DNA from: a virus
Direction: 5' to 3' (one strand)
DNA length: 64,000 bases
Virus record (IMG/VR): IMGVR_UViG_3300005529_000002
Location: 35,933 to 99,932 of that record
Shown here: positions 24,671-63,901 of the stretch, one piece after another
Layout of the letters: every line of letters begins with the position of its first letter
How positions within the stretch are numbered: position 1 is the stretch's first letter
Notes under the pieces: generated by a model
Seen by the model: only the letters and a program-made list of their open reading frames with translations
Database searches by the model: none
What the model was told of the DNA's origin: nothing
Program-made: the position numbers and the translations under genes

Positions 24671-25258
24671 ATGCCAACCTCGGACGAGCCCGGACAGCGC
24701 GGCAAGTGGTGCGCCGAGCACCAGCGGTACGAGTGCGTCAGCCCCTGCAAGGACCGCACCCCCTGCCACAGCCCCCGCATGGTGACCGGCACCGAAAAAT
24801 GCCGGATGCACCTGGGGAAGAAAGCGCAGCCGGTCATCGCCGAAGCCAGGATCGAGCAGGCCGCACGGAAACTCCTCTACCAGCACGACGCCGCCCCCGT
24901 AGCTGACCCGCTCGAAGCACTCCAGCGGCTCGCCGGCCGTGCCCTCGCTCTCGAGGAGACCATCGGCACGCTCGTCAACGATCTCCGCTCGCTCCGGTAC
25001 GAGACCGAGGCGGGCGGGGAGCAGCTCCGCGGCGAAGTGGCCGTGCTCGAGCGGGCGATGGACCGTGCCGGGCGCCTGCTAGTGGATATCGCGAAGCTGA
25101 ACATCGAGGAACGGCTCGCGAAAGTCACGATGCGGCAGGCGCAGATGGCGATGGACGCGCTCGCGGCGGCGATGGCAGGCATGGGGATGAGCGCGGATCA
25201 GCAGCAGGAGGCGCGGAGGCGTGTCGCCCGTCACCTCCGTCTTGTCCCCGCCGCTTAG
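24671..25258 (+). CDS. Terminase small subunit (putative)
   Basis: Directly upstream of TerL; N-terminal C..C..CRMH Zn motif, helical C-terminus. Confidence 0.75.
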   Translation: MPTSDEPGQRGKWCAEHQRYECVSPCKDRTPCHSPRMVTGTEKCRMHLGKKAQPVIAEARIEQAARKLLYQHDAAPVADPLEALQRLAGRALALEETIGTLVNDLRSLRYETEAGGEQLRGEVAVLERAMDRAGRLLVDIAKLNIEERLAKVTMRQAQMAMDALAAAMAGMGMSADQQQEARRRVARHLRLVPAA

Positions 25259-26921
25259 CACGGACCCGTTCGCGGCAGCGCTGGCCGGCCGGCTCGACCC
25301 GCCGCCGCCCCGGATCCCGGAACGCCAGTGGGGGACGCCCGGCGAGCTTGCGCGGGCCGTGGATCCGTCCACGGTGCAGACACCGGCGCTGGACCTGATC
25401 GATGAGGCGCTCGTCTGGGCGTACTCCACGCCCGGTGCCAGGCTGATCGTGTCGATCGGGCCTCAGGAAGGCAAGTCGACCAGGATCTCCAAGGTCGGGG
25501 TGCTGTGGGCGCTGATCCGCAACCCCGAGACGCGGATCGGGATCGTCTCCTACGCGCAGCCTCTCGCGGAGTCTTTCGGCCGGGAGATCCGGAACTGGAT
25601 CACCACGTTCAACGGCGATGACGGTGCGCTGGACCTGGGCTTGCGCATCGCCCCGGATTACGGGTCGGCGAAGCGCTGGCAGCTCGCGGGGCACCGGGGC
25701 GGCGTGCTGTGCGCGGGTCTCCAGGGCGGGATATCGGGGCGCCCGCTCGACACGCTCCTGATCGACGACCCGTTCGCCGACCGCAAGCAGGCCGACTCGG
25801 CCTACTACCGCGAGCTTGTCTGGGAATGGTGGCGTTCGGTCGGTTCCCGGCGCCTGTCACCTGACGGCCCGGTGATCCAGGTGGCTACCCGCTGGCACGA
25901 GGATGACCTTGCCGGGCGGATGCTCGCGGCCGAGGACGGCCACCGCTGGCGGCTGGTCAACATCCCGGCGCTGGCTGACCATGACCCGGCGAAAGGGCAG
26001 TCTGACCCGCTCGGCCGGGAACCGGGGCAGTGGCTCAGGTCCGCCCGCGGGCGGACTGATGCGCAGTGGGAGCAGATCCGGATCGAATCCGGGTCGCGGA
26101 ACTTCGCCGCCCTGTACCAGGGGCGCCCGTCTCCCGATGCGGGGAACGTGTGGAAGCGCCCGTGGTGGCGCAGGTACCGCGAGCCGCTGTGGTCCCAGCA
26201 TCCCCAGGTCCCCGGCGCGTACCTGGTCCGCGACGTGGATGAGCTCGTCATGTCGTGGGACATGACGTTCAAGGACACTAAAGGCTCCGACTTTGTCGCC
26301 GGCGGCCTGCTGGCGCGCCGCGGCGCGGACGTGTTCCTGCTCGACGTGATCCGCAAGCGGCTGTCGTTCCCTGACACCCTGACCGCCTTCGCCGCGTTCT
26401 GTGCCCGGTGGCCCGGCGCTACCGCGAAATACGTCGAGGACAAGGCCAACGGGCCGGCGGTCATCTCGACGCTGCGGTCGAAAATCCCCGGCATTGTCGC
26501 GGTCAACCCGAAGGACTCCAAGTACGGGCGGGCGACCGCGGTCGCGCCGTTCGTGGAAGCCGGGAACGTCCTGGTGCCGGACGCGGAGATCGCGCTTTTC
26601 GACCCTGAGGAACTGATCTCCGAAGCGGCGGCATTCCCTAACGGCTCGCATGACGACCTCGTGGACATGATGAGCCAGGGACTCGCGGAGCTGCTGTTGG
26701 ACGGGACCGGCGCTCAGGCGTGGATCGAGTGGGCGCGGAAGAAGGCCCTCGCCGCGCAGGGGACAGCGCCGGAGGCCGGCGCGCCGGAACCGGAACCGGA
26801 ACCGGAACCGGAACCGGACCCTGAACCCGGTGTGCCGCTCACCCCGGAGCAGGCGAGGAAACAGGCACGGGACGAGATGTACCGGCAGCAGCGGGAAAGG
26901 GCAGCTTCTTGGCAGAGGTAG
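25221..26921 (+). CDS. terL: Terminase large subunit
   Basis: Walker A PQEGKS, Walker B LLIDDP, TRWHEDDL, LYQGRP, SWD, EDKANG, FPNGSHDDLVD. Confidence 0.97.
   Translation: MSPVTSVLSPPLSTDPFAAALAGRLDPPPPRIPERQWGTPGELARAVDPSTVQTPALDLIDEALVWAYSTPGARLIVSIGPQEGKSTRISKVGVLWALIRNPETRIGIVSYAQPLAESFGREIRNWITTFNGDDGALDLGLRIAPDYGSAKRWQLAGHRGGVLCAGLQGGISGRPLDTLLIDDPFADRKQADSAYYRELVWEWWRSVGSRRLSPDGPVIQVATRWHEDDLAGRMLAAEDGHRWRLVNIPALADHDPAKGQSDPLGREPGQWLRSARGRTDAQWEQIRIESGSRNFAALYQGRPSPDAGNVWKRPWWRRYREPLWSQHPQVPGAYLVRDVDELVMSWDMTFKDTKGSDFVAGGLLARRGADVFLLDVIRKRLSFPDTLTAFAAFCARWPGATAKYVEDKANGPAVISTLRSKIPGIVAVNPKDSKYGRATAVAPFVEAGNVLVPDAEIALFDPEELISEAAAFPNGSHDDLVDMMSQGLAELLLDGTGAQAWIEWARKKALAAQGTAPEAGAPEPEPEPEPEPDPEPGVPLTPEQARKQARDEMYRQQRERAASWQR
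26784..26828 (+). repeat. (CCGGAA)5 microsatellite encoding a PE linker
   Basis: Direct reading of the sequence. Confidence 0.9.
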
Positions 26922-27733: not shown

Positions 27734-30700
27734 ATGAGCCTCCGGTCCCGCGCGGCACTCCTTGACCGGCCCGGCAGCACCGTGGCCGTCGCCAAGACGT
27801 TCGGTCCCGGTGTCCCGGAGTCGTTCCGGCAGGGCGAGCAGCAGTCCCAGATGACCCCGTCGTCCCCGTTCTCGCCGGGGACCCCGATCGGGCCGTACGA
27901 CGGATACGACCGGGTACCGCGATCCCGCGATTTCGTCACCGGGTACAACATCGCGGCCCGGCCCCGGCTGCACGAACGGGTGTCGTTCGGCACGCTGAAG
28001 GGCCTCATCGAGGCGTACGACGTCGCTTCCTTGTGTATCTGGCACAGGATCGACTCCATCCGGTCCCTGGACTGGAAGCTCGTCTCCGCTGACCATTTCG
28101 ACGGCGACGTCACCGACATGGTGCCGCTCGGCCTCGCCGCCCTGTACAAGCCCGACCGGGAGAACTACTTCGACACGTGGCTGGCCCGGTGGCTGTACGA
28201 CGTGCTGGCCTACGACGCCGCGCCGCTGTACCGGCTGCGGACCCGCGGCGGCCGGGCCGTGGGACTGATGCCGTTTGACGGGACCAGCCTCGCCCCGCTA
28301 CTCGACTACTGGGGCCGCTCCCCGGCCGCGCCGGCACCCGGCGAACCCGAGCCGGAAGCTTACGTCCAGTACGCGAACGGGCTGCCGTGGGGGTGGCTGA
28401 CCCGCAGCGACGTGATCTACCAGCCATTCCGGCCGCACAACGACTCGATCTACGGGCAGGCCCCGATCGAGACGATCATCCTGAACGCCAACACCGACCT
28501 GAGGTTCCAGGTCTACTTCCTCCAGCGCTTCACTGCAGGGAACCTGCCCGCCGCGTTCGCCTCCGCCCCTGAGTCCTGGGGCCCGGACCAGATCGAGCAG
28601 TTCCAGGTGCTGTGGGACAGCTTCATGTTCGAGGATCAGTCCCGCAAGCACCAGGTGCGGTGGATGCCGCCCGGCAGCAAGTTCGTCTGGTCGAATGAGA
28701 AGGACTTCTCCGACCAGTTCTCCCTGTTCCTGATGCGGAAGACTGCCGCCGCGTTCCATGTCGTGCCCGCCGACCTCGGGTTCACCGAGAACGTGAACAG
28801 GTCGTCGGGCGAGTCGCAGGCCGACGTGCAGCACCGGGTCGGGGACCTGCCGCTGATCCGGTACATACAGCGGGTCATCTCCAGTTTCCTGCAAGACGAC
28901 CTCGGTCTGCCGCTCAAGTTCGCGTTCGACATCGGCGAGGAGCAGGACGACCGGCTCGCCCAGGCCCAGGCCGACGACATCTACATCAAGAACGGCACGG
29001 TGTCGCCGAGTTACATCGCGGAGATGCGGTTCGGCCGCACTGACGCACGGCCGGTCCCGAGGTTCATCTTCACCGAGCGCTCCGGGCCGATCCCGCTGAA
29101 CTCGCTGGAAGCGGTGGCGGGGGAAATCGACCCGGCGACCGCCGCACCCGCGCTGGAGGCGGCGCTCCCGCACCAGGTGTTCGAGGAGGCCCCCGGCGTC
29201 GAGCCGAACCCGCCGCTGTACGGGCAGCCGCTCGCGGAGGAGATCTACGGGCCGTCCGCGATCCCGGCGCACACCGAGACGCAGTCCGCGCAGCCGGTGC
29301 GCGAGCCGGACGAGGCCGGGCAGGTCCGCAAGGAGATGGCGGCGTTCCGGAATTACAGCAGGAAGCGGCGGCAGCGCGGGGTGTGGCAGGACTTCGGGTT
29401 CCGTCACGTCCCGGCAGCCGAGGCGGCGCTGCTGAACGCCGAAGGCAAGCGCACGGTCGTCAAGGCCGCCTCCGGCCCGGACCTCAGCCCCGGTTCCGGC
29501 ATGATCTCCCTCGACCTGCCAGACGGCCTGATCGACCCGGTGCAGGGCGGCGTCACCGATCACCATGTCACGATCGTCTATCTCGGCCGGGACGTGGACG
29601 ACGAGGCGTTCGAGGCAGCATGCCTGCGCGCAGCGTCGGCCGCGGCGGGGATGCCGGGGCCGCTGGAGGCACAGGTGGGCGGCATCGGATCGTTCCCGCC
29701 CTCGGATGGCAGCGACGGGAAGATGCCCGTGTGGGCTGGGGTCACAATGCCGGGCGGGGAGCAGCTCCGCAGCGCACTGGCTGACCTGTCGGCCAGCGAG
29801 CACCCGGAGTGGAAACCGCACGTCACCCTCGCCTACGCCGAGCCGGGCGACCCGCTGCCCAGCCCGGTTCCAGCTGTCCCGGTGACGTTCACGCACCTGT
29901 CCGTGCACCGCGGCGGCGACGTGGCCAGGTTCCGTCTCGGCGGGGAGCCCGGCCCGGCCGGCTGCTGCGGCGCGGAGTGCTGCACGAGTGAAGGCGGATG
30001 CTGCGGCGGCTCCGCAGGTTGCCAGTGCGCCGCCAGCAGCGACATAGCCAAGGCGGTGGTGACCGGCCCAAAAGCGTGGCCCGGCTGGGAGCTTGACCTC
30101 CCCGCAGCCGGGTACTGGGCTCCTCTCCTCGCCGCCGCTCTTTCCGGGGCGCTGAGCAGGACCCGTGCTGAGCAGATAGCCCGCGCCTGGCTCGCGGAGC
30201 ACCCGCAGGACCAGCCGGAGCAGGGCAGGCGGGAGACCGTCGAAGCCGCCGCCGCATGGCTGTACGCGCAGGGCCTGGACCTCGTCTCGCCTATCACGCC
30301 GCTCATGCCGGGGATGATCGCGGACGCCGCCCTCATCGGCGGAGTGAGCGCGGCAGCGGCAGCGGACGGCACCCCGGCGGACACCGGGGACTGGCAGCCG
30401 GGGAACCAGGGCGCGGCACGGGACCGGGCGGAAGCACTCGGGCTCGGCGCTGTCCTCGGTGCCGCGCAGGACCGCAGCGACCAGGACGCGCAGCAGGCGG
30501 CCGGCGGGTACATGACCTCCCTGGCCCGCGTGCTGGCTGACAGCGCGTCGTCAGGACTGGGTGCGGCTGCTGCCGGGGCGGCGCTCCTCTCGGCGCTCAG
30601 CGACCCTGAGGCGGCCGGGCGGACGGTGCTGGGCGTGCTCGTCACCGGCATCGGGGCGGCGGCGCTCGCGCTGTACCTGGCACGGAAGGTGCAGCGGGTC

Positions 30701-30835
30701 GCGTTCACCACGGCGCTGGACGCCAGGGTATGCGTGACCTGCTCGCAGTACGCGGCCGGCAGTCCCTACCCGATCGCGAGCGCACCTCAGGTGCCAGTCC
30801 ATCCGGCGTGCCGCTGCGCGATCCAGCCGGCGTAG
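27734..30835 (+). CDS. Portal protein fused to a 2H phosphoesterase (Acb1-like) and a MuF-like domain
   Basis: Portal motifs (YGQAPIE, F..GNLP, AFHVVPADLG); HHVTIVYLG and WKPHVTLAY; DARVCVTC...PVHPACRC. Confidence 0.9.
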   Translation: MSLRSRAALLDRPGSTVAVAKTFGPGVPESFRQGEQQSQMTPSSPFSPGTPIGPYDGYDRVPRSRDFVTGYNIAARPRLHERVSFGTLKGLIEAYDVASLCIWHRIDSIRSLDWKLVSADHFDGDVTDMVPLGLAALYKPDRENYFDTWLARWLYDVLAYDAAPLYRLRTRGGRAVGLMPFDGTSLAPLLDYWGRSPAAPAPGEPEPEAYVQYANGLPWGWLTRSDVIYQPFRPHNDSIYGQAPIETIILNANTDLRFQVYFLQRFTAGNLPAAFASAPESWGPDQIEQFQVLWDSFMFEDQSRKHQVRWMPPGSKFVWSNEKDFSDQFSLFLMRKTAAAFHVVPADLGFTENVNRSSGESQADVQHRVGDLPLIRYIQRVISSFLQDDLGLPLKFAFDIGEEQDDRLAQAQADDIYIKNGTVSPSYIAEMRFGRTDARPVPRFIFTERSGPIPLNSLEAVAGEIDPATAAPALEAALPHQVFEEAPGVEPNPPLYGQPLAEEIYGPSAIPAHTETQSAQPVREPDEAGQVRKEMAAFRNYSRKRRQRGVWQDFGFRHVPAAEAALLNAEGKRTVVKAASGPDLSPGSGMISLDLPDGLIDPVQGGVTDHHVTIVYLGRDVDDEAFEAACLRAASAAAGMPGPLEAQVGGIGSFPPSDGSDGKMPVWAGVTMPGGEQLRSALADLSASEHPEWKPHVTLAYAEPGDPLPSPVPAVPVTFTHLSVHRGGDVARFRLGGEPGPAGCCGAECCTSEGGCCGGSAGCQCAASSDIAKAVVTGPKAWPGWELDLPAAGYWAPLLAAALSGALSRTRAEQIARAWLAEHPQDQPEQGRRETVEAAAAWLYAQGLDLVSPITPLMPGMIADAALIGGVSAAAAADGTPADTGDWQPGNQGAARDRAEALGLGAVLGAAQDRSDQDAQQAAGGYMTSLARVLADSASSGLGAAAAGAALLSALSDPEAAGRTVLGVLVTGIGAAALALYLARKVQRVAFTTALDARVCVTCSQYAAGSPYPIASAPQVPVHPACRCAIQPA

Positions 30836-31591: not shown

Positions 31592-32145
31592 GGCCTCCAC
31601 TCCTCCCGGTAGCCGGGACGATGCCGGTAGCCCCAGCCGAGCAGCCGGACGGCACGCTCAAGTCCCTCGATCAGCTTCACGTCAGGCCCGCTGAAGGCCG
31701 GGCGCACCGCAGGAGCATCACCTGCCGCCCAGGCGCCGTAGTCGGCCGCCTCAGCTTTCCGCCGTGCCGTCGCAGCGGCCAGCTCGTCCAGGATCGCCAG
31801 TTCCGCATCGCACCGCGCGATCGTGTCACGCGGGTCGTTCGCCTCCATGAGCCGGGTAACCGACGAGTCGCCCATCGCCCAGGTGCCGTGCCATGTGTCA
31901 GTCTCGGTCGGCTCGGCGAAGACGAGGACGCCGCTTGACTGCTCGGTCCACTCGAAAGCGTTGCCCAGCCTGATCGCGTGCTGCGCGAGGTAAAGACGTT
32001 CGGCTACCCGCTGCCGCAGCCATGCCGGAAGTTCCGGCTCGCCGGGCCGGGGGAGCAGGTTCCTGAACTTCCAGCCTGGCGGCATCCTCACCTGAATACC
32101 CGGCTTCGCCGTCAGGTCGTACGGGACCAGTCCGTCTTCGCTCAC
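31588..32145 (-). CDS. DUF6221-like protein
   Basis: NDPRDTIARCDAELAILD...VRLLGWGYRHRPGYREEWRP. Confidence 0.8.
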   Translation of the reverse strand: MSEDGLVPYDLTAKPGIQVRMPPGWKFRNLLPRPGEPELPAWLRQRVAERLYLAQHAIRLGNAFEWTEQSSGVLVFAEPTETDTWHGTWAMGDSSVTRLMEANDPRDTIARCDAELAILDELAAATARRKAEAADYGAWAAGDAPAVRPAFSGPDVKLIEGLERAVRLLGWGYRHRPGYREEWRP

Positions 32146-32229
32146 TCTGGATCACGCTCCCGGCCGTCAACGATGACGTGCCCGTTCACGTCAAGGCTCA
32201 TGCCCTCCATCGTGCCAGGGAGGTGGGGC

Positions 32230-32748
32230 ATGGACGGTTTCCTTGTCGTCATCGACCGCGCCGAACTGCGGGCCGCGATACGGCGCAACCTCGCCGAGCA
32301 GGCCGCCCGCCAGCTTCCGGCACCGCTGCAGCGCGGCGTCGTCCGGCAGATGACCCCCGTCACCAAAGGCGAGGGAGAGAAGCGGTTCCTGCTCGGCCTG
32401 GCCTATCAGGCCGGGTTCGACCCGCGTATCCGCAAGGGGCAGGACGGCGGCCGGGACGCGTTCAGTCCCGAAGAGCTCGAAAAAGCCTGCTGGAGCTTCC
32501 TTCCCGGCGGCGGCCAGATCGGGATAGCCCACCTGGACGGCACTCTCGGCCACATGACCGTTACCGAGAACTACATATACCGGGGGCCGGACTGGGAGCA
32601 GCCGAGCGGCCTGGTGATCAAGTCCGGGATGGCGTGGCTGATCGGCGGGATCTGCGACGAGTACGCGTGGTCGCTGGCCAAATCCGGCAGGGTCAAGGGT
32701 TTCTCGCCGCAGGGCGGGGCGCGCCGCCGCCGTCTCGGGTACGCATGA
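32230..32748 (+). CDS. XkdF-like prohead serine protease
   Basis: KRFLLGLAY...D.FSPEELEKACWSF...H...ENY...W..G....W...KSG..KGFSPQG. Confidence 0.85.
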   Translation: MDGFLVVIDRAELRAAIRRNLAEQAARQLPAPLQRGVVRQMTPVTKGEGEKRFLLGLAYQAGFDPRIRKGQDGGRDAFSPEELEKACWSFLPGGGQIGIAHLDGTLGHMTVTENYIYRGPDWEQPSGLVIKSGMAWLIGGICDEYAWSLAKSGRVKGFSPQGGARRRRLGYA

Positions 32749-34865: not shown

Positions 34866-36377
34866 ATGACCGCAGCAGCAGAAGACATCACAGAGGAAAC
34901 CCTCGCCGCGATCAAGAAGGCCCAGACCACGGGCATCACCGAGGCGACCGGCGGATACTCCTACGACCTGTCGGGCCTCATCAACCTGATCCCGGTCGTC
35001 ACCCCGTTCCGCGACCACGTCCCCCGCACGTCAAGCCCGGACGGCAACCCGTTCGCGGTCTGGCGGGCGTTCATGGACGCCACCAACAGCCAGCCCGACC
35101 CCAGCATGGGCTTCGACTTCGCGGCCCCGGAGATGGTGTTCAACGAGCAGGACTTCCAGGCCCGGTACAAGCCGACCGGCATGGCAGTCAACGTCACCCA
35201 GGACTCGTTTGACCTGGCCAAGGGGTACTACGACCCGTACGCCAACGCCACGTTCCAGACCCTGAACCAGGTGCTGATCGGCGACGACCGCAAGCAGCTG
35301 TGCGCCCAGTCGTTCGCGTTGAAGGCGGCGACCGCGCCGACCCTCACCCAGCACGCCTCAGGCGGCACCATCGGCGCCGTCCAGGTGTACGTCGGCGTCG
35401 CCGGCCGCACCGGCTCCGGGTACTTCTGGGGTTCCGGGAACAGCCAGGGCGCGAGCAGCAACACCACGTTCGGGTCAGGGTCAGCCAACTCGGTGTCGGC
35501 TACCACCGCGGCGCTGCGCGGCGCCGTCGCCTACGACTGGTTCCAGAGCAGCAACGGCACCACCTGGTACTACTACGGGACCACCACGGTCAACGCGATC
35601 ACGATGACCTCCGTCATCACGTCGAACAACGCCGTCTCGTCAGGAGTCACGGTCCCGGACCTGACCGCCAACTGGAACGGCATCGCACCCGGCAAGCCCG
35701 GCTACACCGGCCCGACCTACAACGGGTCGGCCGACAACGGGTCCGCGAACGCCAACGACTATGACGGGTTCCTCGCCTCCCTTTCCGGCGACTACGACGG
35801 CAATGGCAAGTGGACCCAGCCCGGCCTCGGCACCGTGAACCCGTCCGTGTGGAACAGCCTCAACGGCGCGGCGCTGACCCTGACCGGCGGCACCGTCACC
35901 GAGATCGAGCAGTACCTGTTCCTGCCGCTGTGGCAGCAGGTCAAGTGCAGTCCCACCGCGATCATGTGCAACGGCATCCAGGCCCAGGAGATCGCCAACC
36001 TGATCCTCGGCGCCAACAGCGCGACCACGTTCCTCAACACCGATTCCAGCGGCCGCATCAACGTGTCCGCAGGCGGCCGGGTCGGGCACGTCATCAACGC
36101 CTACACGGGCGGCACCGAGGTCCCGATCGAGGTCCACGTCTCGCTGCCCCCGGGCACGATCATCGCCCGCACCGACCGGGTTCCCTTCCCCCAGGCGAAC
36201 ATCTCCAGCGTGCTGGAGCAGCGGTGCCTGCGCGACACCGCCCAGTACGAGTACGGCGTCTCCCGCGTACCCGGGGTGCAGGGCGGAGGCCCGCGGAAGG
36301 AAAGCGAAATCCGCACAGTCAGCGCGTTCATCAACCGCGCGCCGGTCGCGATGGCCGCCCTGTCGAACGTCGCCTGA
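34866..36377 (+). CDS. Major capsid protein
   Basis: AAGGAGG RBS; position; YDL....LIPV.TPFRD..PR, IEVH..LPPGTI motifs; strong codon bias. Confidence 0.88.
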   Translation: MTAAAEDITEETLAAIKKAQTTGITEATGGYSYDLSGLINLIPVVTPFRDHVPRTSSPDGNPFAVWRAFMDATNSQPDPSMGFDFAAPEMVFNEQDFQARYKPTGMAVNVTQDSFDLAKGYYDPYANATFQTLNQVLIGDDRKQLCAQSFALKAATAPTLTQHASGGTIGAVQVYVGVAGRTGSGYFWGSGNSQGASSNTTFGSGSANSVSATTAALRGAVAYDWFQSSNGTTWYYYGTTTVNAITMTSVITSNNAVSSGVTVPDLTANWNGIAPGKPGYTGPTYNGSADNGSANANDYDGFLASLSGDYDGNGKWTQPGLGTVNPSVWNSLNGAALTLTGGTVTEIEQYLFLPLWQQVKCSPTAIMCNGIQAQEIANLILGANSATTFLNTDSSGRINVSAGGRVGHVINAYTGGTEVPIEVHVSLPPGTIIARTDRVPFPQANISSVLEQRCLRDTAQYEYGVSRVPGVQGGGPRKESEIRTVSAFINRAPVAMAALSNVA

Positions 36378-39276: not shown

Positions 39277-40539
39277 ATGCCGCCCAGCATCCCGACCAGT
39301 TTCTTCCCGGTCTTCTCATCCGCGATGCTGCTCGGCCGGGAAGGCATCACCACCCCCGGCCAGGCGCCGACCGCGTTCACGTCGATCCCGGTCAAGGCAC
39401 TGACGACGAGCCCCAAGATCACCTGGCTGAAAGACCAGAACCTCCGCGGCTCGAATGTGGAGACATTCGGGCAGGCGCAGGGCGGGCGGTACGCGGAGAT
39501 CACCACCCCGCAGTCGCTGGCCTACGCGGACACTATCGGCCACCCGCTGTTCGCGATGTGCGGCGACTACACGGTCACAGGGGCCGCTGCATCGCCGAAC
39601 TCGACGCTGAACGGCGGGGTCGCCGCTGGCGCCACGTCGCTCACCGTCGCGTCCGGGACCGGGTTCGCCGCGAGCCAGTGGATCCAGATCGACACCCTCG
39701 CGAACGCCGAGATCGTCCAGGTACTGTCCGTCGCCTCCAACGTGATCACGCTGGCGACGAACACCCCCACCCGGTTCTCCCACCTGACCGCCGCCCCGGT
39801 CACGAACACCCAGGCCCCGTACGTCCACCTGTTCAGCGGCATCAACCCGGGTTCCTCAACGGGTAACGCGTCCGCCCAGCCGCCCACGTACACGGTGCTC
39901 CACCGCACCGGCCTGCCCGGGGCCGGCAGCCCCGGATTCTCCGCAGACCAGTACCTGTACGGCCACATGACGGACCTGAAGCTGTCCGCCAAGGCCACCG
40001 ACTGGCTGCTGTGGGATTCGAAGATCACCGCGCTGTCCCGCTCGAACCCCGCCGCGAACTACGCCCCTGCTTTCAGCACCGTGACGGGCTGGCCGGCGTG
40101 GCGGGGGTCGATCACCCTCAACGCCGGTGCCGTCTACAACGTGAGCGACATGACGATCGCGATGTCGCGCAAGCCCGACATCATCTGGACTTCCGACGGG
40201 CAGCAGGACCCGTACGCCATCGGCGCCGGCCCGTTCTCGGCCATGTTCACCATCGACTACGACGCCGTCAGCGACGAATCCGCTCTGAACTACGCCCTGA
40301 ACAACACCCAGCCCGCGCTCGTCTACACGATCTCCAACGGCCTGTCGGGCGCCAGCCAGCTGTCGCTGTCCATCGCGGCCGCGCTGGCCGCGCACGAGAC
40401 CGCCGACCTGGCCGCCCAGCGCACCCTGTGGGGTTACAAGACCACAGGCGAGCTGGTGTCCAGCACGAGCGATGCCGGGAACTCGGGCGGGTACAGCCCG
40501 TTCCAGGCCACCCTCACCAACGCCGTGCCGTCCTACTAG
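39277..40539 (+). CDS. Major tail tube protein
   Basis: LG.E...PG; D..LRGS; Y.DTIG..L; C-terminal TLTNAVPSY; followed by the chaperone. Confidence 0.85.
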   Translation: MPPSIPTSFFPVFSSAMLLGREGITTPGQAPTAFTSIPVKALTTSPKITWLKDQNLRGSNVETFGQAQGGRYAEITTPQSLAYADTIGHPLFAMCGDYTVTGAAASPNSTLNGGVAAGATSLTVASGTGFAASQWIQIDTLANAEIVQVLSVASNVITLATNTPTRFSHLTAAPVTNTQAPYVHLFSGINPGSSTGNASAQPPTYTVLHRTGLPGAGSPGFSADQYLYGHMTDLKLSAKATDWLLWDSKITALSRSNPAANYAPAFSTVTGWPAWRGSITLNAGAVYNVSDMTIAMSRKPDIIWTSDGQQDPYAIGAGPFSAMFTIDYDAVSDESALNYALNNTQPALVYTISNGLSGASQLSLSIAAALAAHETADLAAQRTLWGYKTTGELVSSTSDAGNSGGYSPFQATLTNAVPSY

Positions 40540-40588
40540 GACGCCGCGGCCATCCCCCAGCTATCAGCGGACACTCATGCGAGGTTCA

Positions 40589-41083
40589 ATGCACGATGTA
40601 GTTGTGCCAGGCGACGGCGGCTGGTTCGACCTGATCCCCGTACGGGAACTCACGGTGGGCCAGCAGGACGAGTACCTGGACCTGCGGGACCAGCTGTTCG
40701 AGGAGGCGCGCGCCAAGCTGCCGCCGCCCGGCCCCGACCCGGCGAACCCGGCGATGATGGCACCCGCGCCGGAGGTCCGGTTCTCCCGCCAGCAGCTGAC
40801 CCGCCTCCACAACCTGGCGGCCTCCTACGCGGTGACGGGCACGTCGTACGACGGGGTGCTGCCCTGGCATGACGGATCACGGGCGGCGGCGGGCCTTCCC
40901 GCGTGGAACGCGCTGCGGCAGGCTCTCGCCAGGGACGGCGGCGTGTTCGACACGCTACTCGGTGAGGTCCCAAAAGAGGAGAGCCCGACTACTTCCGGCA
41001 TCTCCGGGACTTCATCGTCAGGCGATGCGGATGCCCCCCTCCCGGGCTCCGCGGAGGAGACATCCGCCACGCCCACGGAGTAG
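40589..41083 (+). CDS. Tail assembly chaperone (gpG)
   Basis: Between tube and TMP; slippery C CCA AAA at 40969-40975. Confidence 0.8.
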   Translation: MHDVVVPGDGGWFDLIPVRELTVGQQDEYLDLRDQLFEEARAKLPPPGPDPANPAMMAPAPEVRFSRQQLTRLHNLAASYAVTGTSYDGVLPWHDGSRAAAGLPAWNALRQALARDGGVFDTLLGEVPKEESPTTSGISGTSSSGDADAPLPGSAEETSATPTE

Positions 41084-41199
41084 TCCGCGGCTGGTATCAC
41101 CCGGAGGGGCCGGAGAACCTCCCGGCTGCCGTGCGGGCCCTGCTCGATGACGTGTCGGCAGTGCTGGACCAGATGAGGACTGACACGGGCGGATGGTGA
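40975..41199 (+). CDS. Tail assembly chaperone -1 frameshift extension (gpGT)
   Basis: -1 frame open for 74 codons: RGEPDYFRHLRDF...ENLPAAVRALLDDV...W*. Confidence 0.75.
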   Translation, partial: RGEPDYFRHLRDFIVRRCGCPPPGLRGGDIRHAHGVVRGWYHPEGPENLPAAVRALLDDVSAVLDQMRTDTGGW

Positions 41200-41253: not shown

Positions 41254-41667
41254 GTGAATCTCGGTGAGGCCGCCGCCGCGTTCCGGGCCATCGCGGAACG
41301 GGCTGAATCGGGCCTGGCGCGGGAGGCATGCGAGGAAGCCGCACGCGACTACCTGGCGGTCCTGCGGATGGTCACGCCGAAGCGCTCCGGGCGGCTGGCG
41401 GAGTCGGAGCGGATCGACTCGGTTACGGGCGGCGGGACGTTCGCCGTCGCCGTCGTGGCCCCGCACACCAGGTACGCGGCGTTCCGGAACTACGGCGGGA
41501 CGATTACCAGGCACAAGCCGGGGTCGCTCGGGACGCCGGCAGTGGGGTTCTTCGGCCATTCAGTGACGCAGGCCGGCTCGCACTACATGGAACGCGCCGA
41601 AGGGGCAGCGGCGGGACCGGTCTCGGCGGCGTGCCGCGCGGTCGCCGGCCGCTACTTCACGCTCTGA
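41254..41667 (+). CDS. HK97 gp10-like neck/tail protein
   Basis: TPKRSGRLAES...YAAFRNYGGTI...HYM. Confidence 0.8.
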   Translation: MNLGEAAAAFRAIAERAESGLAREACEEAARDYLAVLRMVTPKRSGRLAESERIDSVTGGGTFAVAVVAPHTRYAAFRNYGGTITRHKPGSLGTPAVGFFGHSVTQAGSHYMERAEGAAAGPVSAACRAVAGRYFTL

Positions 41668-41704: not shown

Positions 41705-44700
41705 GTGGCGATCGAGGAGACCATTGCCGTAGGCGTCTCCGGGCTCGGTGATGTCACCGCCCTGGCCGATGCGCTGGACAAGGCGGCAGCGTCCGCGGCG
41801 CGGCTTGACGAGGCGGCCGGGAAAGGGTTCAGCTTCTCCGGTGCCGCATCGGGAGCGGGGAAGCTCGCGGACTCCTACGAGGCGGCGTTCGCCCGTATCC
41901 AGGCGCAGTTCGACGCCATGGAAAAGCGGATGGCGTCGATGGGGAAGGCCGCAGGCGGAGACTCCGCGGCGGCCAGCCTCGGCGCGGTCGGGGAGGCGGG
42001 AAAGGCCGCAGCGGCAGGGCTGGATTCGGCTGCCGCGTCCGGGGCGGCGGCCGGGGACGCCCTGAAGTCCGCCGCGGGCGGCGCAGATTCCGCCGCGGCC
42101 TCGTTCGGCGCTGCCGGGGACGCCGCTAAATCGGCGGCTGCGGGGGCGGACGCGGTCGCCGGGTCAGGTGCCGCTGCCGCTGACGGGCTCAAGTCCGCCG
42201 GGGCAGGGGCGGACGCGGCCGCGGGACAGCTCGCGGCGCTGCGTGCCGAGATGACGGCTACGGCGGCGTCGGCGGACGCGACAGCAGCGGCGACAGCGGA
42301 CGCGAACGCGAAGATCGCTCGCGGGCAGCGGCTGAACACGATGGCCGCGCGGGACGCCTCAGCGGAGGCGGTCGCGGCGCAGCGGGCCCAGTCCGCGGCG
42401 TCAAGGCAGGCCGCCGAAGACGCTGCGGCCTCGTCATCGAAACACTCGGCCGTCGTGCTCGGGCTCGCTGCGGCGCTCGGCTACGGCACCGAGAAAGCCG
42501 CTCAGCTCCAGACCTCCGTCACCAAGCTGTACACGTCAGCCGGGGAGTCGCGGGCGAACCTGCCGATGATCTCCCAGGGCATCCTCGCCATGTCCGGGGC
42601 CACTGACACGTCGCAGGCGGACCTGGCAGCCGGGGCGTATTTCGCGGAGTCGGCCGGGTTCCACGGCCGGAACGCGCTCGCCGTGACCAGGGCAGCAGCG
42701 CAAGGCGCGAAAGCTGAGGGCGCGAACGTCCCCGATGTCGCGAACGCGCTGACGACGGTGCTGAACGACTACTTCGGCGGGCCGGCGAAAACCCCGCAGC
42801 TTCAGCAGAAGCAGGCCACTCAGGCGATGAATGAGATCATCGCGAGCGTCGGCCAGGGCAAGATGACCTTGCAGGGGCTGTCCACGGCGCTGCCGGTGCT
42901 GCTGCCGACCGCGAAGACCGCCGGGCTGAAACTGCCGCAGGTGCTCGGCGCCGAGGCGACTATGACCGCCGGGGGCACCACTCCCGAGAACGCGGCGCAG
43001 GAAATCCGGTACACGGTACAGCACCTCCAGAAGCTGTCGAACCCGCAGGCCGCCGAGATGCAGATGCTCGGCATCAACCCTGTCCAGCTCCAGCATGACC
43101 TGGGCAGGCAGGGTCTGACGGGGACGATCGGCGAAGTAGACAACGCGATCCAGAAGCACATGGGGCCGGGCGGCATGGTGCTGCTCGACACCATGAACCA
43201 GGCGAAACTGGCGACCCAGTCCGCGCGCGAGGAGATCGCGGCGATGCCGCCGTCGATCCGGAAGACCGCCGAGGCGTACCTGTCCGGCAGCATCAACGCG
43301 AAGGCGTTCAACCAGGCTGTCCGGCAAGGCCCGGAGTCGGCCAGGGACGCGAACCTGCTCAAGCAGTTCGAATCCACGGCGTCATCGGCGCTCGGGTTCT
43401 CCCAGCTCGTCAAGTCGGGGCAGGGCAACCAGCAGACTGTCGCCGCCGCCCTGGCCACCTTGATGGGCGGCCAGCCCGGCATGCAGGTCGCCGAGCAGGT
43501 CGGCGGCGCGGACCACCTGAAGACGTTCGGCGACAACGTCAGGACGATCGGCGACACAGCCGCGCACACCGGGGACAACATACGGGGCTGGAACGACATC
43601 CAGGGCCAGCTGAATTTCAAGCTCGGGTCGTTCGTCCACACCGCTGAGGCGGTCGCGACCGAGGCCGGGCAGATGGTGCTCCCGGACCTGACGAAAGTGC
43701 TCGGCGTGGCGTCCGGCGCCGGCCAGTTCCTGGCGTCCCACCCTGCGGTGACGCAGCCGCTGATGGCCGGCGGCGGGATCCTGGCGGCAGGGTACGCGCT
43801 CCAGAAAGTCCGGCAGCCGGTCACGGCAGCACTCCAGGGTGCCGGGAAGATCGGCGAGGCGCTGCACATCCCTGGCCTGGACAAGCTGGCGAATATCGGG
43901 AAAGACACGGGACTGGCGGGCGCCGCCACCGGGCTCACCGGGGCGGCCACGTCACTGGACGGGGCGGCGGCCAGCCTGGAAGGCGCGGCGGCCAGCCTGA
44001 AGGGCGGCAGCCTGGCGGGTGCCGCGGAAGGCGGCGGCCTTCCCGGGGCTGCCGCGACGGGGGAACGCGCAGCCGGGTCGGCGGCGGAGAAAGACGCTGC
44101 CCTCGCGGGTGAGGAGGCGGCCGGCGGGTCTTTCCTGAGCAAGTTCCTGGGCGGGGCGAAATCCGCTGCGGGAGGTCTCGGTGAGGTCGCCAGCCGCATG
44201 GTGATGCCGCTCGCGGTCGCGGCGACCGTGAAGCAGGTCGGTGACCAGCTCGCCCCGGCGGGCAGCAACGCCGGCAAGATCACGAGCATCACTCAGCATT
44301 CCAGCCTCGCCGGGCCGTCCGGGTCGCTCGACATCGGCGGATGGTTCGGGCTGCTCGCCCAGCACATGCCGGACCTGTTCGGCAGCGGCGGCAGGCCGCA
44401 GACGGCGTCGCTGGCCGGAGGCGGCCGGTACGCTGCCCTGTCCGGCGACTACCGGCAGTCGGTCCCGGCCCCCTACGCCGCCCCCCGGGCGGCACCAGCG
44501 CCGCTGCCGGCCGAGTCGCAGATGCCGCACCTGTACGCCGCCGCGGGCCACCCCGGCACGATGACCGGCGGCCCCCCGGTCAAGATCCCCGCCCCGGACC
44601 TCAGCGCGGTCGAAGGTGCCACCGCCAAGGCCAAGAACGCCTTGAACACGCTGGGAAACATCCAGGTCAAGCCCGTCAAGGTGCCTGCCCCGGACACTTC

Positions 44701-46375
44701 GGCCGTCGATTCGGCGTCCGCTAAGGTCAAGGGCGCGATGACGGCGCTGTCTTCCATGCACATCAACCCGCTGCGGATGCCGGCCGCCGACCTGTCCGCC
44801 CTGGACCAGGCGAAAGCGAAAACCGCGTCGGACATGAACGGGATCACCGGCACCATGGCGGCAGCAGCCGGCCCGGCCCGCGCCGCGGGTGCAGCGGTGG
44901 CGGCGGGGATGGCCGGCGGGATCAGCGCCGGGACAGGAGCGGCGGTAGCGGCAGCGCACCAGCTCGCCGCCGAGGTCGAGAGCGCCCTCAACGTCTCCCT
45001 CCAGGTGCACAGCCCGTCGAAAGTGTCCGAGCACAGCGGCGAGGAGTTCAGCGCCGGCCTGGCTTCCGGCATAGACAAGGGAAAAACCAAGGCGAAGAAG
45101 TCCGCCGCCGGCCTGTCCGCTTCCACCGTGAACTCGCTGGTCACCGGGCTCCAGGGCGGCCAGTCCGCGGTCGATGCCGCGATGGCGGCGCTCGGCTCCC
45201 CCGCCAAGCCCCAGGACATCACCACCATCGAGGCGACCGTCGCGAAACTGAAATCCGATCTGGCGGCGGGACTGAAGAAGGGCGATGTCTCCAAATCCGA
45301 GGACAGCGCCCTGACGACGATGCTGGACCGGGACAACCAGAAGCTCCAGCGGCTCGCGGCGCAGCGCACGAAACTGGAAACCGAGATCGCCTCCGCCCAG
45401 CAGCTCGGCCAGTCCGCGATCAGCGAGGCGTCCATCCTGAACGCCGGGCAGGCCGCCCCCGCTGAGTCGATCACCGCGCAGGCCAGCAGCCAGACGGTGC
45501 AGGGCATGCAGTACCAGGCGCAGCAGCAGCAGCAGTTCGCGAGCCAGCTGGCCCAGCTGCAGAAGCAGGGCCTCAACGCCCAGTCCATCTCGCAACTCGC
45601 GCAGGGCGGCGCGGCGGCCGGCCTGCCGGTCACCGAGGGCCTCGTCGGGGACAAGTCCGCGATCTCCCAGATCAACCAGTCCGAGAAGCAGATCATGGCG
45701 GCTGCCGGGAGCATCGGGAACACGGGTGCCCCGGCCATGTACCAGGCAGGGCAGCAAGTCGCCTCCCAGCTCGGCAAGGGCCTCCAAGGCCAGCTCAAGG
45801 CGGTTGACAACCAGATGAAGTCCGTCGCCCACGGCATGGTGAGCGCCGTCGAGGCGGGACTGAACGGCAAGGGCCTCAAGGCGGCGATGGCGGCGGACGG
45901 GGCCTCGGCCGGGCAGGGGTTCGCCAGCGGGCTCCAGTCGGAGATCCCCGCCGCGTCGGCGGCCGGGGCGGCGCTCGCGCAGGCTGCGGAAGCAGCGGCG
46001 AAAGCGCAGCTCCAGTCCCATTCCCCGTCGCTGGTGTTCCGGCGCGTCGGGTTCACCGTGCCGGAGGGGTTCGCGCAGGGCATAGGCGACGGTGCCGGGC
46101 CGGTGTCGGCCGCCGCCGGGCGGATGGCGTCCGGTGCGGCAGCGCATGCGGGGATGATGCACCCGTACGGCGGCGGCGGCGGCGGAACACCCAGCGTGGG
46201 CGGGTTCTCCGGTGGGGGCGGCGGTACCCAGGTGGTCCACCACCACTACAACATAACGGTACAGGGCAGTGTCACCACTGAGCGTGACCTGTTCAACGCC
46301 ATGCAGGACAGGCAGCTGGAACGGTCCGCGAATAACTACCGGGGCGGCTGGAACCTGCCGTACAAGGGGGCGTGA
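41705..46375 (+). CDS. Tape measure protein
   Basis: 1556 aa, Ala-rich helical; TP901-type core; HSPS motifs; NITVQGSV at the C-terminus. Confidence 0.95.
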   Translation: MAIEETIAVGVSGLGDVTALADALDKAAASAARLDEAAGKGFSFSGAASGAGKLADSYEAAFARIQAQFDAMEKRMASMGKAAGGDSAAASLGAVGEAGKAAAAGLDSAAASGAAAGDALKSAAGGADSAAASFGAAGDAAKSAAAGADAVAGSGAAAADGLKSAGAGADAAAGQLAALRAEMTATAASADATAAATADANAKIARGQRLNTMAARDASAEAVAAQRAQSAASRQAAEDAAASSSKHSAVVLGLAAALGYGTEKAAQLQTSVTKLYTSAGESRANLPMISQGILAMSGATDTSQADLAAGAYFAESAGFHGRNALAVTRAAAQGAKAEGANVPDVANALTTVLNDYFGGPAKTPQLQQKQATQAMNEIIASVGQGKMTLQGLSTALPVLLPTAKTAGLKLPQVLGAEATMTAGGTTPENAAQEIRYTVQHLQKLSNPQAAEMQMLGINPVQLQHDLGRQGLTGTIGEVDNAIQKHMGPGGMVLLDTMNQAKLATQSAREEIAAMPPSIRKTAEAYLSGSINAKAFNQAVRQGPESARDANLLKQFESTASSALGFSQLVKSGQGNQQTVAAALATLMGGQPGMQVAEQVGGADHLKTFGDNVRTIGDTAAHTGDNIRGWNDIQGQLNFKLGSFVHTAEAVATEAGQMVLPDLTKVLGVASGAGQFLASHPAVTQPLMAGGGILAAGYALQKVRQPVTAALQGAGKIGEALHIPGLDKLANIGKDTGLAGAATGLTGAATSLDGAAASLEGAAASLKGGSLAGAAEGGGLPGAAATGERAAGSAAEKDAALAGEEAAGGSFLSKFLGGAKSAAGGLGEVASRMVMPLAVAATVKQVGDQLAPAGSNAGKITSITQHSSLAGPSGSLDIGGWFGLLAQHMPDLFGSGGRPQTASLAGGGRYAALSGDYRQSVPAPYAAPRAAPAPLPAESQMPHLYAAAGHPGTMTGGPPVKIPAPDLSAVEGATAKAKNALNTLGNIQVKPVKVPAPDTSAVDSASAKVKGAMTALSSMHINPLRMPAADLSALDQAKAKTASDMNGITGTMAAAAGPARAAGAAVAAGMAGGISAGTGAAVAAAHQLAAEVESALNVSLQVHSPSKVSEHSGEEFSAGLASGIDKGKTKAKKSAAGLSASTVNSLVTGLQGGQSAVDAAMAALGSPAKPQDITTIEATVAKLKSDLAAGLKKGDVSKSEDSALTTMLDRDNQKLQRLAAQRTKLETEIASAQQLGQSAISEASILNAGQAAPAESITAQASSQTVQGMQYQAQQQQQFASQLAQLQKQGLNAQSISQLAQGGAAAGLPVTEGLVGDKSAISQINQSEKQIMAAAGSIGNTGAPAMYQAGQQVASQLGKGLQGQLKAVDNQMKSVAHGMVSAVEAGLNGKGLKAAMAADGASAGQGFASGLQSEIPAASAAGAALAQAAEAAAKAQLQSHSPSLVFRRVGFTVPEGFAQGIGDGAGPVSAAAGRMASGAAAHAGMMHPYGGGGGGTPSVGGFSGGGGGTQVVHHHYNITVQGSVTTERDLFNAMQDRQLERSANNYRGGWNLPYKGA

Positions 46376-63724: not shown

Positions 63725-63901
63725 GGGGTTCCTTTCAGTTTGCCGGCATCCCCCTGCGGGACGCCGTCTGATGCTGCCTCCCTCACGGGAGGCCCGTACC
63801 CCGCCGTGCTGCGGTGGCGGGGAGAAGGTCTAGGTGTATCGGCCCAGGTCAGGCACTAGCTTGTTTACGAACCTATGACGAACGATGAAGGTCCCAAAAG
63901 A

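Follow-up and report, generated by a model that had tools for sequence, protein, structure and literature searches.

A putative dnaX-like programmed −1 ribosomal frameshift signal at the enzyme/MuF boundary of a phage portal-fusion gene

A stretch of viral DNA of 64,000 nucleotides (nt; positions 35,933 to 99,932 of IMG/VR record IMGVR_UViG_3300005529_000002; this whole stretch is referred to below as the window) carries on its plus strand, at 27734–30835, a gene encoding a protein of 1033 amino acids (aa) in which a portal part, a 2H phosphoesterase part and a MuF-like domain follow one another. At the boundary between the 2H and MuF parts lies what we take, with a probability of about 0.86, to be a working signal for programmed −1 ribosomal frameshifting, with a dnaX-like build in three parts: a Shine–Dalgarno-like stretch, a slippery heptamer and a downstream hairpin. 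By this signal one gene very probably yields a protein with MuF and a protein without it. Comparison of sequences establishes that the signal is present, that its nucleotides are conserved and that relatives exist in which MuF requires the shift.

The codons GGC CCA AAA GCG are found at 30065–30076 of the open reading frame (ORF), so that the slippery heptamer C CCA AAA (30067–30073, plus strand) stands in the X XXY YYZ register and is followed by G at 30074. The original prediction, which was made from the window itself, had recognized this site, had pointed to the identical octamer CCCAAAAG at 40969 and had proposed programmed −1 frameshifting at the portal-gene site; inspection of the reading frames confirmed both copies and their register, and the comparison with relatives described below supports the proposal. 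The −1 frame tail (30073–30096, plus strand) reads AGC GTG GCC CGG CTG GGA GCT TGA, which corresponds to SVARLGA followed by a stop at 30094–30096. Translation bore out the claim that the −1 frame stops seven codons on; the predicted −1 product would thus comprise 780 + 7 = 787 aa (portal-2H) versus 1033 aa for the full-length protein. CCCAAAA occurs three times in the 64 kb window versus 1.5 expected, and three or more copies were obtained in 19/100 shuffles.

A protein search over 5.8 billion proteins returned hundreds of homologues in which the portal is followed by 2H or NUDIX and then by MuF, and 30 homologues with 51–64% identity to the query were aligned. A search of genome contigs with a single-protein pattern found no relatives, whereas the alignment-based search did find them. 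The DNA obtained comprised 80 viral contigs together with 16 genome loci; tblastn matches spanning the junction defined a set of 75 loci (∼45–65% protein identity), and the distinct junctions, that of the window included, amounted to 76, each with its ORF. An in-register slippery heptamer was present at the junction in 73/75 loci (66 with CCCAAAA and seven with GGGAAAA), and the check that the original prediction had called for, conservation of the heptamer at synonymous positions in relatives, was in this way answered in its favour. The codons involved are indeed rare: in the 76 ORFs CCA makes up 5.0% of the proline codons, AAA 9.9% of the lysine codons and GGA 7.8% of the glycine codons, while C ends 51% of all codons. 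From this codon usage the chance of encountering the heptamer, given a P-K pair, is ∼0.25% (∼1 in 400). The base following the heptamer is G in 70/76 junctions. Since the replacement of P-K by G-K preserves the pattern X XXA AAA and not the peptide, selection acts on the nucleotides. As a separate observation, one locus (L011:6373) contains a second in-register CCCAAAA 26 codons past its junction site, within the W-A-P-K motif of MuF and with an open −1 frame of 380 codons; this copy is likely to be a chance occurrence in G+C-rich DNA.

The candidate Shine–Dalgarno-like stimulator of the window, AAGGCGGTGGTGA (30050–30062, plus strand), encodes K-A-V-V-T, is complementary to the 3′ tail of 16S rRNA and ends 4 nt before the heptamer. 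The tail sequence used, GGAUCACCUCCUUUCU, was confirmed at the 3′ end of the 16S rRNA in two genomes of the host's family; it was taken from there because the window's own genome contains only a 5′ fragment of 16S rRNA. In the window, the duplex energy of CAAGGCGGUGGUGACC is −13.5 kcal/mol versus an ORF mean of −5.6 kcal/mol, which places it at the 0.4th percentile (with a slightly different control set, 0.7% of the ORF positions reached −13.5 kcal/mol or lower). Across the 76 junctions the 16 nt before the heptamer paired with the 16S rRNA 3′ tail far better than did other positions of the same ORF, with a mean z score of −2.0 and 36 junctions in the lowest 5% (binomial p ∼1e-26). Within the five codons preceding the site, glycine is encoded by GGT in 41/63 cases (65%, versus 8.8% elsewhere; p ∼1e-27) and aspartate by GAT in 17/28 (61%, versus 10.9% elsewhere; p ∼3e-10). 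Because it is carried by these rare synonymous codons, the Shine–Dalgarno-like stretch appears to be selected at the nucleotide level, and the conserved peptide V-A-K-A-x4-P-K can be seen to be largely the shadow of AAGGnGGUGAU-N5-CCCAAAAG. A Shine–Dalgarno-like element carried by rare codons would represent, for the high-G+C Gram-positive bacteria, a clear case of a stimulator in the style of dnaX.

Downstream of the heptamer a hairpin with a 6-nt loop and a stem of 13 base pairs interrupted by a 3-nt bulge is predicted at 30079–30113 (plus strand). It starts 5 nt after the heptamer and overlaps the codons for W-P-G-W-E-L-D-L-P-A-A-G. Its folding energy in the window is −23.8 kcal/mol, which lies at the 2.4th percentile among segments of its own ORF. 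With the main folding measure, the plain folding energy of 45 nt compared with controls from the same ORF, the 76 junctions gave a mean z score of −0.9 and 46/76 fell in the lowest quartile, which is a moderate effect. A G+C-rich hairpin situated 4–8 nt downstream is common in the relatives, though not universal; its stem varies in sequence (GCCUCC/GGAGGC, GCCCCC/GGGGGC and GGCCCC/GGGGCC) and, depending on the relative, it is encoded either in an extra linker or in the W-P-G-W codons. The hairpin is supportive of a frameshift signal, short of being decisive. The original prediction had recognized the signal by its heptamer and had missed both the upstream stretch and the hairpin.

The consequence of a shift differs between relatives and is defined and conserved in either case, consisting of an immediate −1 stop or of a MuF part without a start codon in the −1 frame. 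In 64/76 distinct junctions the layout is truncating as in the window, with MuF in the zero frame and a stop in the −1 frame. The −1 tails of these 64 junctions have a median length of four codons versus 49 at control positions in the same ORFs; 84% are of ten codons or fewer (16% at control positions) and in 30% the stop lies within one codon (3% at control positions). In the other 12/76 the layout is extending, as had been foreseen in the original prediction: the zero frame stops 9–29 codons past the heptamer, and the conserved W-P-G-W...Y-W motif together with the rest of MuF runs for 259–568 codons in the −1 frame. These 12 come from prophages in four different Kitasatospora isolate genomes and from eight different metagenome contigs. 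In 9/12 extending loci no ATG, GTG or TTG occurs in the −1 frame between the upstream −1 stop and a point 30 codons past the site, and in seven of them the start of the open −1 frame lies just four codons ahead of the shift point; the W-P-G-W motif begins 2–7 codons after the site. As the −1 frame lacks a start codon there, MuF would be made in these loci only by slipping. A tree of 68 portal parts implied nine switches between the layouts, at least eight of which are forced by well supported branches, and the topology obtained with IQ-TREE agrees with it.

The frequent interconversion of the layouts also lends itself to another account, in which the heptamer slips but in the truncating genes is an inherited remnant whose short product is a tolerated by-product, so that only the extending relatives use the signal; the truncating genes may then descend from extending ones, and two relatives have lost the site and kept the fusion. 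Neutral relics, however, would decay at saturated synonymous sites, whereas 64 distinct truncating junctions keep the two rare codons, the preceding C, the rare codons of the Shine–Dalgarno-like stretch and a near −1 stop, and the tenfold excess of −1 stops within one codon looks selected. We therefore consider this account unlikely.

The linker between enzyme and MuF is highly variable in both length and sequence, yet in the 30-protein alignment P779 and K780 show no variation at all, and K773/A774 hardly any. The conserved residues V-A-K-A...P-K could hence constitute a protein motif, such as a prohead-protease site or a linker signature, to which the heptamer would be incidental. A protease-like gene is present downstream, and V-x-K recurs in other inter-domain linkers of the homologues. 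A protein motif would nevertheless leave the synonymous codons free to vary, whereas CCA-AAA is used in all P-K junctions versus ∼0.5% expected; it would also leave unexplained the use of GGT and GAT, the swap to G GGA AAA, the near −1 stops and the 12 junctions with MuF in the −1 frame. As a substitute for frameshifting a protein motif is very unlikely, while a cleavage site could exist alongside the frameshift signal. In the linker between portal and enzyme, V-x-K motifs (consensus P-V-A-K-E and A-V-A-K-E-L) recur at 29290–29340 of the window and in homologues; these may either serve the prohead protease as sites for releasing the domains inside the capsid or be further Shine–Dalgarno-like stretches.

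As the sequence immediately preceding the MuF part strongly complements the 3′ tail of 16S rRNA, it might alternatively be an internal ribosome-binding site for separate translation of MuF, with no role in stimulating a frameshift. No start codon, however, lies in the MuF frame at a distance that would suit such a site; the nine extending loci devoid of ATG, GTG and TTG have their W-P-G-W motif only a few codons past the site, and the conserved heptamer would be left without explanation. The probability of internal initiation is accordingly very small. Smaller still is that of a chance CCCAAAA, with which the three copies in 64 kb would agree, or of assembly errors in the relatives, where a one-base error in the A run would mimic the −1 layout, given that the heptamer is kept in 73/75 relatives, that the four isolate genomes and eight metagenome contigs with the extending layout each have their own sequence (the four Kitasatospora isolates in themselves argue against an assembly error) and that a run of four A's is not error-prone in short-read assemblies. 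RNA polymerase slippage was considered and rejected, four A's being too few; known cases need about seven or more.

Several observations weigh against the interpretation of the site as a functional frameshift signal. The number of heptamers in the window alone is within chance, and the significance of the window's heptamer therefore comes from the comparison with relatives only. Two junction-spanning relatives, L044 and L091 (Streptomyces sp. NPDC005302), are the only ones without a slippery heptamer; their linkers read ...VVKARAEDWPGW and ...VAKAAAGEGPDD...DWPGW, respectively, and they apparently make the full fusion only, the site having been lost. The distance between the Shine–Dalgarno-like stretch and the heptamer varies by several codons among the relatives. 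The hairpin of the window has a z score of −1.6 versus shuffled sequences, which is moderate on a G+C-rich background, and a stricter measure, in which the outer pair was forced to be closed, gave a mean z score of −0.47 across the relatives and odd structures. The loci share ancestry, so that the p-values given above overstate their independence. Finally, all of the evidence for the proposed frameshift is comparative.

If the site functions as a programmed frameshift signal, the following sequence of events can be envisaged. The Shine–Dalgarno-like stretch would pull on the ribosome, which would pause owing to the rare AAA codon and the hairpin; the proline and lysine tRNAs would then slip back by one base and re-pair on CCC AAA. 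Ribosomes remaining in frame would produce the 1033-aa portal-2H-MuF protein, and those that had slipped would add seven codons, stop and release the 787-aa portal-2H protein devoid of MuF. The slip would remove MuF in the window and add it in the 12 extending relatives, in both cases giving a cargo with and without MuF, and one gene would supply portal subunits with and without MuF in a fixed ratio. Such a ratio may matter for assembly, for instance by limiting the crowding of MuF inside the 12-subunit portal ring. We infer that slipping could be frequent, in the range of tens of percent, and propose that it is for this reason that the MuF frame flips easily in evolution. A more far-reaching and tentative suggestion, which we rate as possible, is that the Shine–Dalgarno-like stretch, heptamer, hairpin and MuF together form a portable cassette that couples head-borne cargo (portal, 2H or NUDIX) to MuF in a fixed fraction. 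With slipping near one half, as in dnaX, it would be nearly neutral which of the two frames, zero or −1, holds MuF, and the nine layout switches would follow from this near-neutrality.

The position of the signal relative to the domains is informative. The middle enzyme of the relatives is either 2H or NUDIX, and in L012 and L058 the portal is encoded by a separate gene of 632 aa, the next gene comprising NUDIX, the signal and MuF. As the signal is present with a separate portal gene and with either enzyme, it is tied to the boundary before MuF and not to the portal as such; the original prediction, which had placed it at the 2H/MuF boundary of the portal gene, is amended in this respect. In L058 (3962–7039) and in L060 an intein was found in the portal gene ahead of the portal domain (matches to Hint, LAGLIDADG and intein-splicing domains), and several database homologues show the same combination of Pfam domains.

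The signal is also present in cultured phages. A blastn search against cultured phages gave only one 250-nt match, in the portal, and tblastn was needed in order to find homologues. The Arthrobacter phages Sonali and Mufasa8 are ∼42% identical in the portal and are true homologues. CCCAAAA occurs in register at codon 737/996 in Sonali and at codon 738/1001 in Mufasa8 (stop included), both phages have −1 tails of nine codons and a CCCUCC/GGAGGG hairpin, and the Shine–Dalgarno-like energies are −12.4 and −11.1 kcal/mol, respectively. The records of both annotate a single product, gene 3 of Sonali being described as 'portal and MuF-like fusion protein'.

The window, which is prophage DNA, belongs to contig C106 of a draft genome that measures 8.2 Mb and has 70% G+C; where relatives of the portal-fusion protein are named, they are actinomycete prophages. 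According to ORFs and profile matches the gene for the 1033-aa protein is surrounded by a tailed-phage structural module. The large terminase gene (25221–26921) is its direct upstream neighbour; a protease-like gene (31978–32748), capsid-region genes, a tail gene (tail-tube-like; 39277–40539), a chaperone-like ORF (40577–41083, plus strand), a Neck1-like ORF (41254–41667) and the tape measure gene (41705–46375) follow downstream, the capsid-region genes lying between the protease-like and tail genes. The domain order within the protein is as originally claimed. The portal part extends over about residues 1–520 (PF04860 at residues 105–426, 45.7 bits versus a cut-off of 39.1) and the 2H phosphoesterase part over about residues 580–735 (2H/LigT-like PF13563 at residues 611–715, 31.8 bits versus a cut-off of 27); the translation of the latter contains two H-x-T motifs, the HVT of HHVTIVY and that of PHVTLAY. 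These parts are followed by the linker with the recoding signal (about residues 740–790) and the MuF-like C-terminal domain (about residues 790–1033), in which residues 976–1032 match PHROG head-morphogenesis families with E values of 3e-4 to 7e-3. PF04233 (Phage_Mu_F) gave no match in the 1033-aa protein of the window at E ≤ 0.1 and matched 8/30 of the full-length aligned homologues, the best with an E value of 5.6e-13.

Some further features of these proteins were observed. A cysteine-rich insert, CCGAECCTSEGGCCGGSAGCQC, encoded at 29960–30032 of the window, separates the 2H domain from the frameshift signal and possibly binds metal; homologues P0002 and P0006 have an insert with a near-identical cysteine pattern, and others have a different Cys/His-rich insert or none. 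Some homologues (P0002, of 1759 aa, and P0111) combine portal, a 2H or NUDIX enzyme and the MuF-like region with an ADP-ribosyltransferase domain (PF03496), and a weak match to the anti-CBASS family Acb1 (E value of 0.008) was obtained with one of the 2H domains in the 30-protein alignment. The matches to PF03496 and to Acb1 fit with middle enzymes that are virion-borne cargo, possibly with anti-defence functions.

The two other copies of the heptamer in the window lie outside the portal signal. The second in-register CCCAAAA(G), CCCAAAAG (40969–40975, plus strand), is situated in the chaperone-like ORF, a putative tail assembly chaperone gene by its position between the tail and tape measure genes. 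The zero frame of this ORF ends at 41083 and the −1 frame reaches a TGA at 41197–41199, giving 75 codons more. Its upstream Shine–Dalgarno-like match (CGGUGAGGU) is weak (−7.6 kcal/mol), and a search for relatives of the chaperone protein in which the conservation of this site could be followed found none. The third CCCAAAAG (63893–63899) begins three codons into an open frame of 38 codons (ATG AAG GTC CCA AAA) in a locally A+T-richer region; no Shine–Dalgarno-like stretch lies upstream of it and it is probably a chance occurrence.

To our knowledge, every annotation of the portal/MuF region presents it as a plain gene or plain fusion. If the signal works, many portal-MuF fusions of actinomycete phages and prophages, those of cultured Arthrobacter phages included, are mis-annotated in that they encode two proteins or a MuF without a start of its own. 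The portal vertex would then be a defined mixture of subunits, which bears on how MuF and cargo (2H, NUDIX or ADP-ribosyltransferase) are counted into capsids, and the repeated flips between truncating and extending layouts would amount to a natural experiment in which the constraint of frameshift efficiency on gene architecture can be followed. A portable cassette of the kind suggested above, if it exists, would set the number of portal subunits or cargo enzymes tethered inside the capsid. As Sonali and Mufasa8 are cultured, the frameshift can be tested directly.

Programmed frameshifting in tailed phages is a textbook case for the tail assembly chaperone and is known in a few capsid genes; the portable cassette suggested above would, if real, add to the tail chaperone shift a second recoding event that is widely conserved in the structural genes of tailed phages. 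Rfam contains no frameshift element that matches the portal-gene signal, and a full-text literature search, the coverage of which excludes most subscription journals, found no account of a frameshift at an enzyme/MuF junction. Portal-MuF fusion genes in Microbacterium phage clusters EA and EB have been described as plain fusions with no mention of a frameshift (PMC7302621); the domain fusion is the same as that in the window, and the frameshift signal is additional to the published description. Among predictions of PRFect classed as 'false positive', adjacent genes for MuF-like and VIP2 ADP-ribosyltransferase proteins, which are fused elsewhere, were suggested to be possibly joined by a frameshift (PMC10885494). 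The MuF/toxin junction in that case comes after MuF and not before it, and the report gives no site, conservation analysis or truncating case.

The −1 frameshift of the tail assembly chaperone genes G/GT is found in lambda and in most long-tailed phages (Xu, Hendrix and Duda, 2004, as cited in PMC7302621). As there, the signal in the portal-fusion gene would be a conserved −1 shift in a phage structural gene that fixes the ratio of a short to a long product; the 12/76 extending relatives would work in this way, and at 40969 the chaperone gene of the window itself appears to employ the identical CCCAAAAG. In contrast to G/GT, the portal-fusion site concerns an enzyme/MuF pair in the head module, where it follows directly on the large terminase gene with the tape measure gene 10 kb further downstream, and shortens the product in the window.

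The closest resemblance in build is to E. coli dnaX, in which a programmed −1 frameshift at the heptamer A AAA AAG truncates tau to gamma and both forms enter one assembly. The heptamer of the window is C CCA AAA (G) instead of A AAA AAG, and the element is no homologue of that of dnaX; dnaX encodes a polymerase subunit, whereas the gene considered here is a phage head gene with extending relatives. The likeness nevertheless extends to all three parts, with a Shine–Dalgarno-like stretch, a heptamer ending in an AAA-type lysine codon and a predicted hairpin a few nucleotides downstream arranged in the same order, and to the predicted outcome, a near-immediate −1 stop that would yield a shorter protein without the C-terminal domains.

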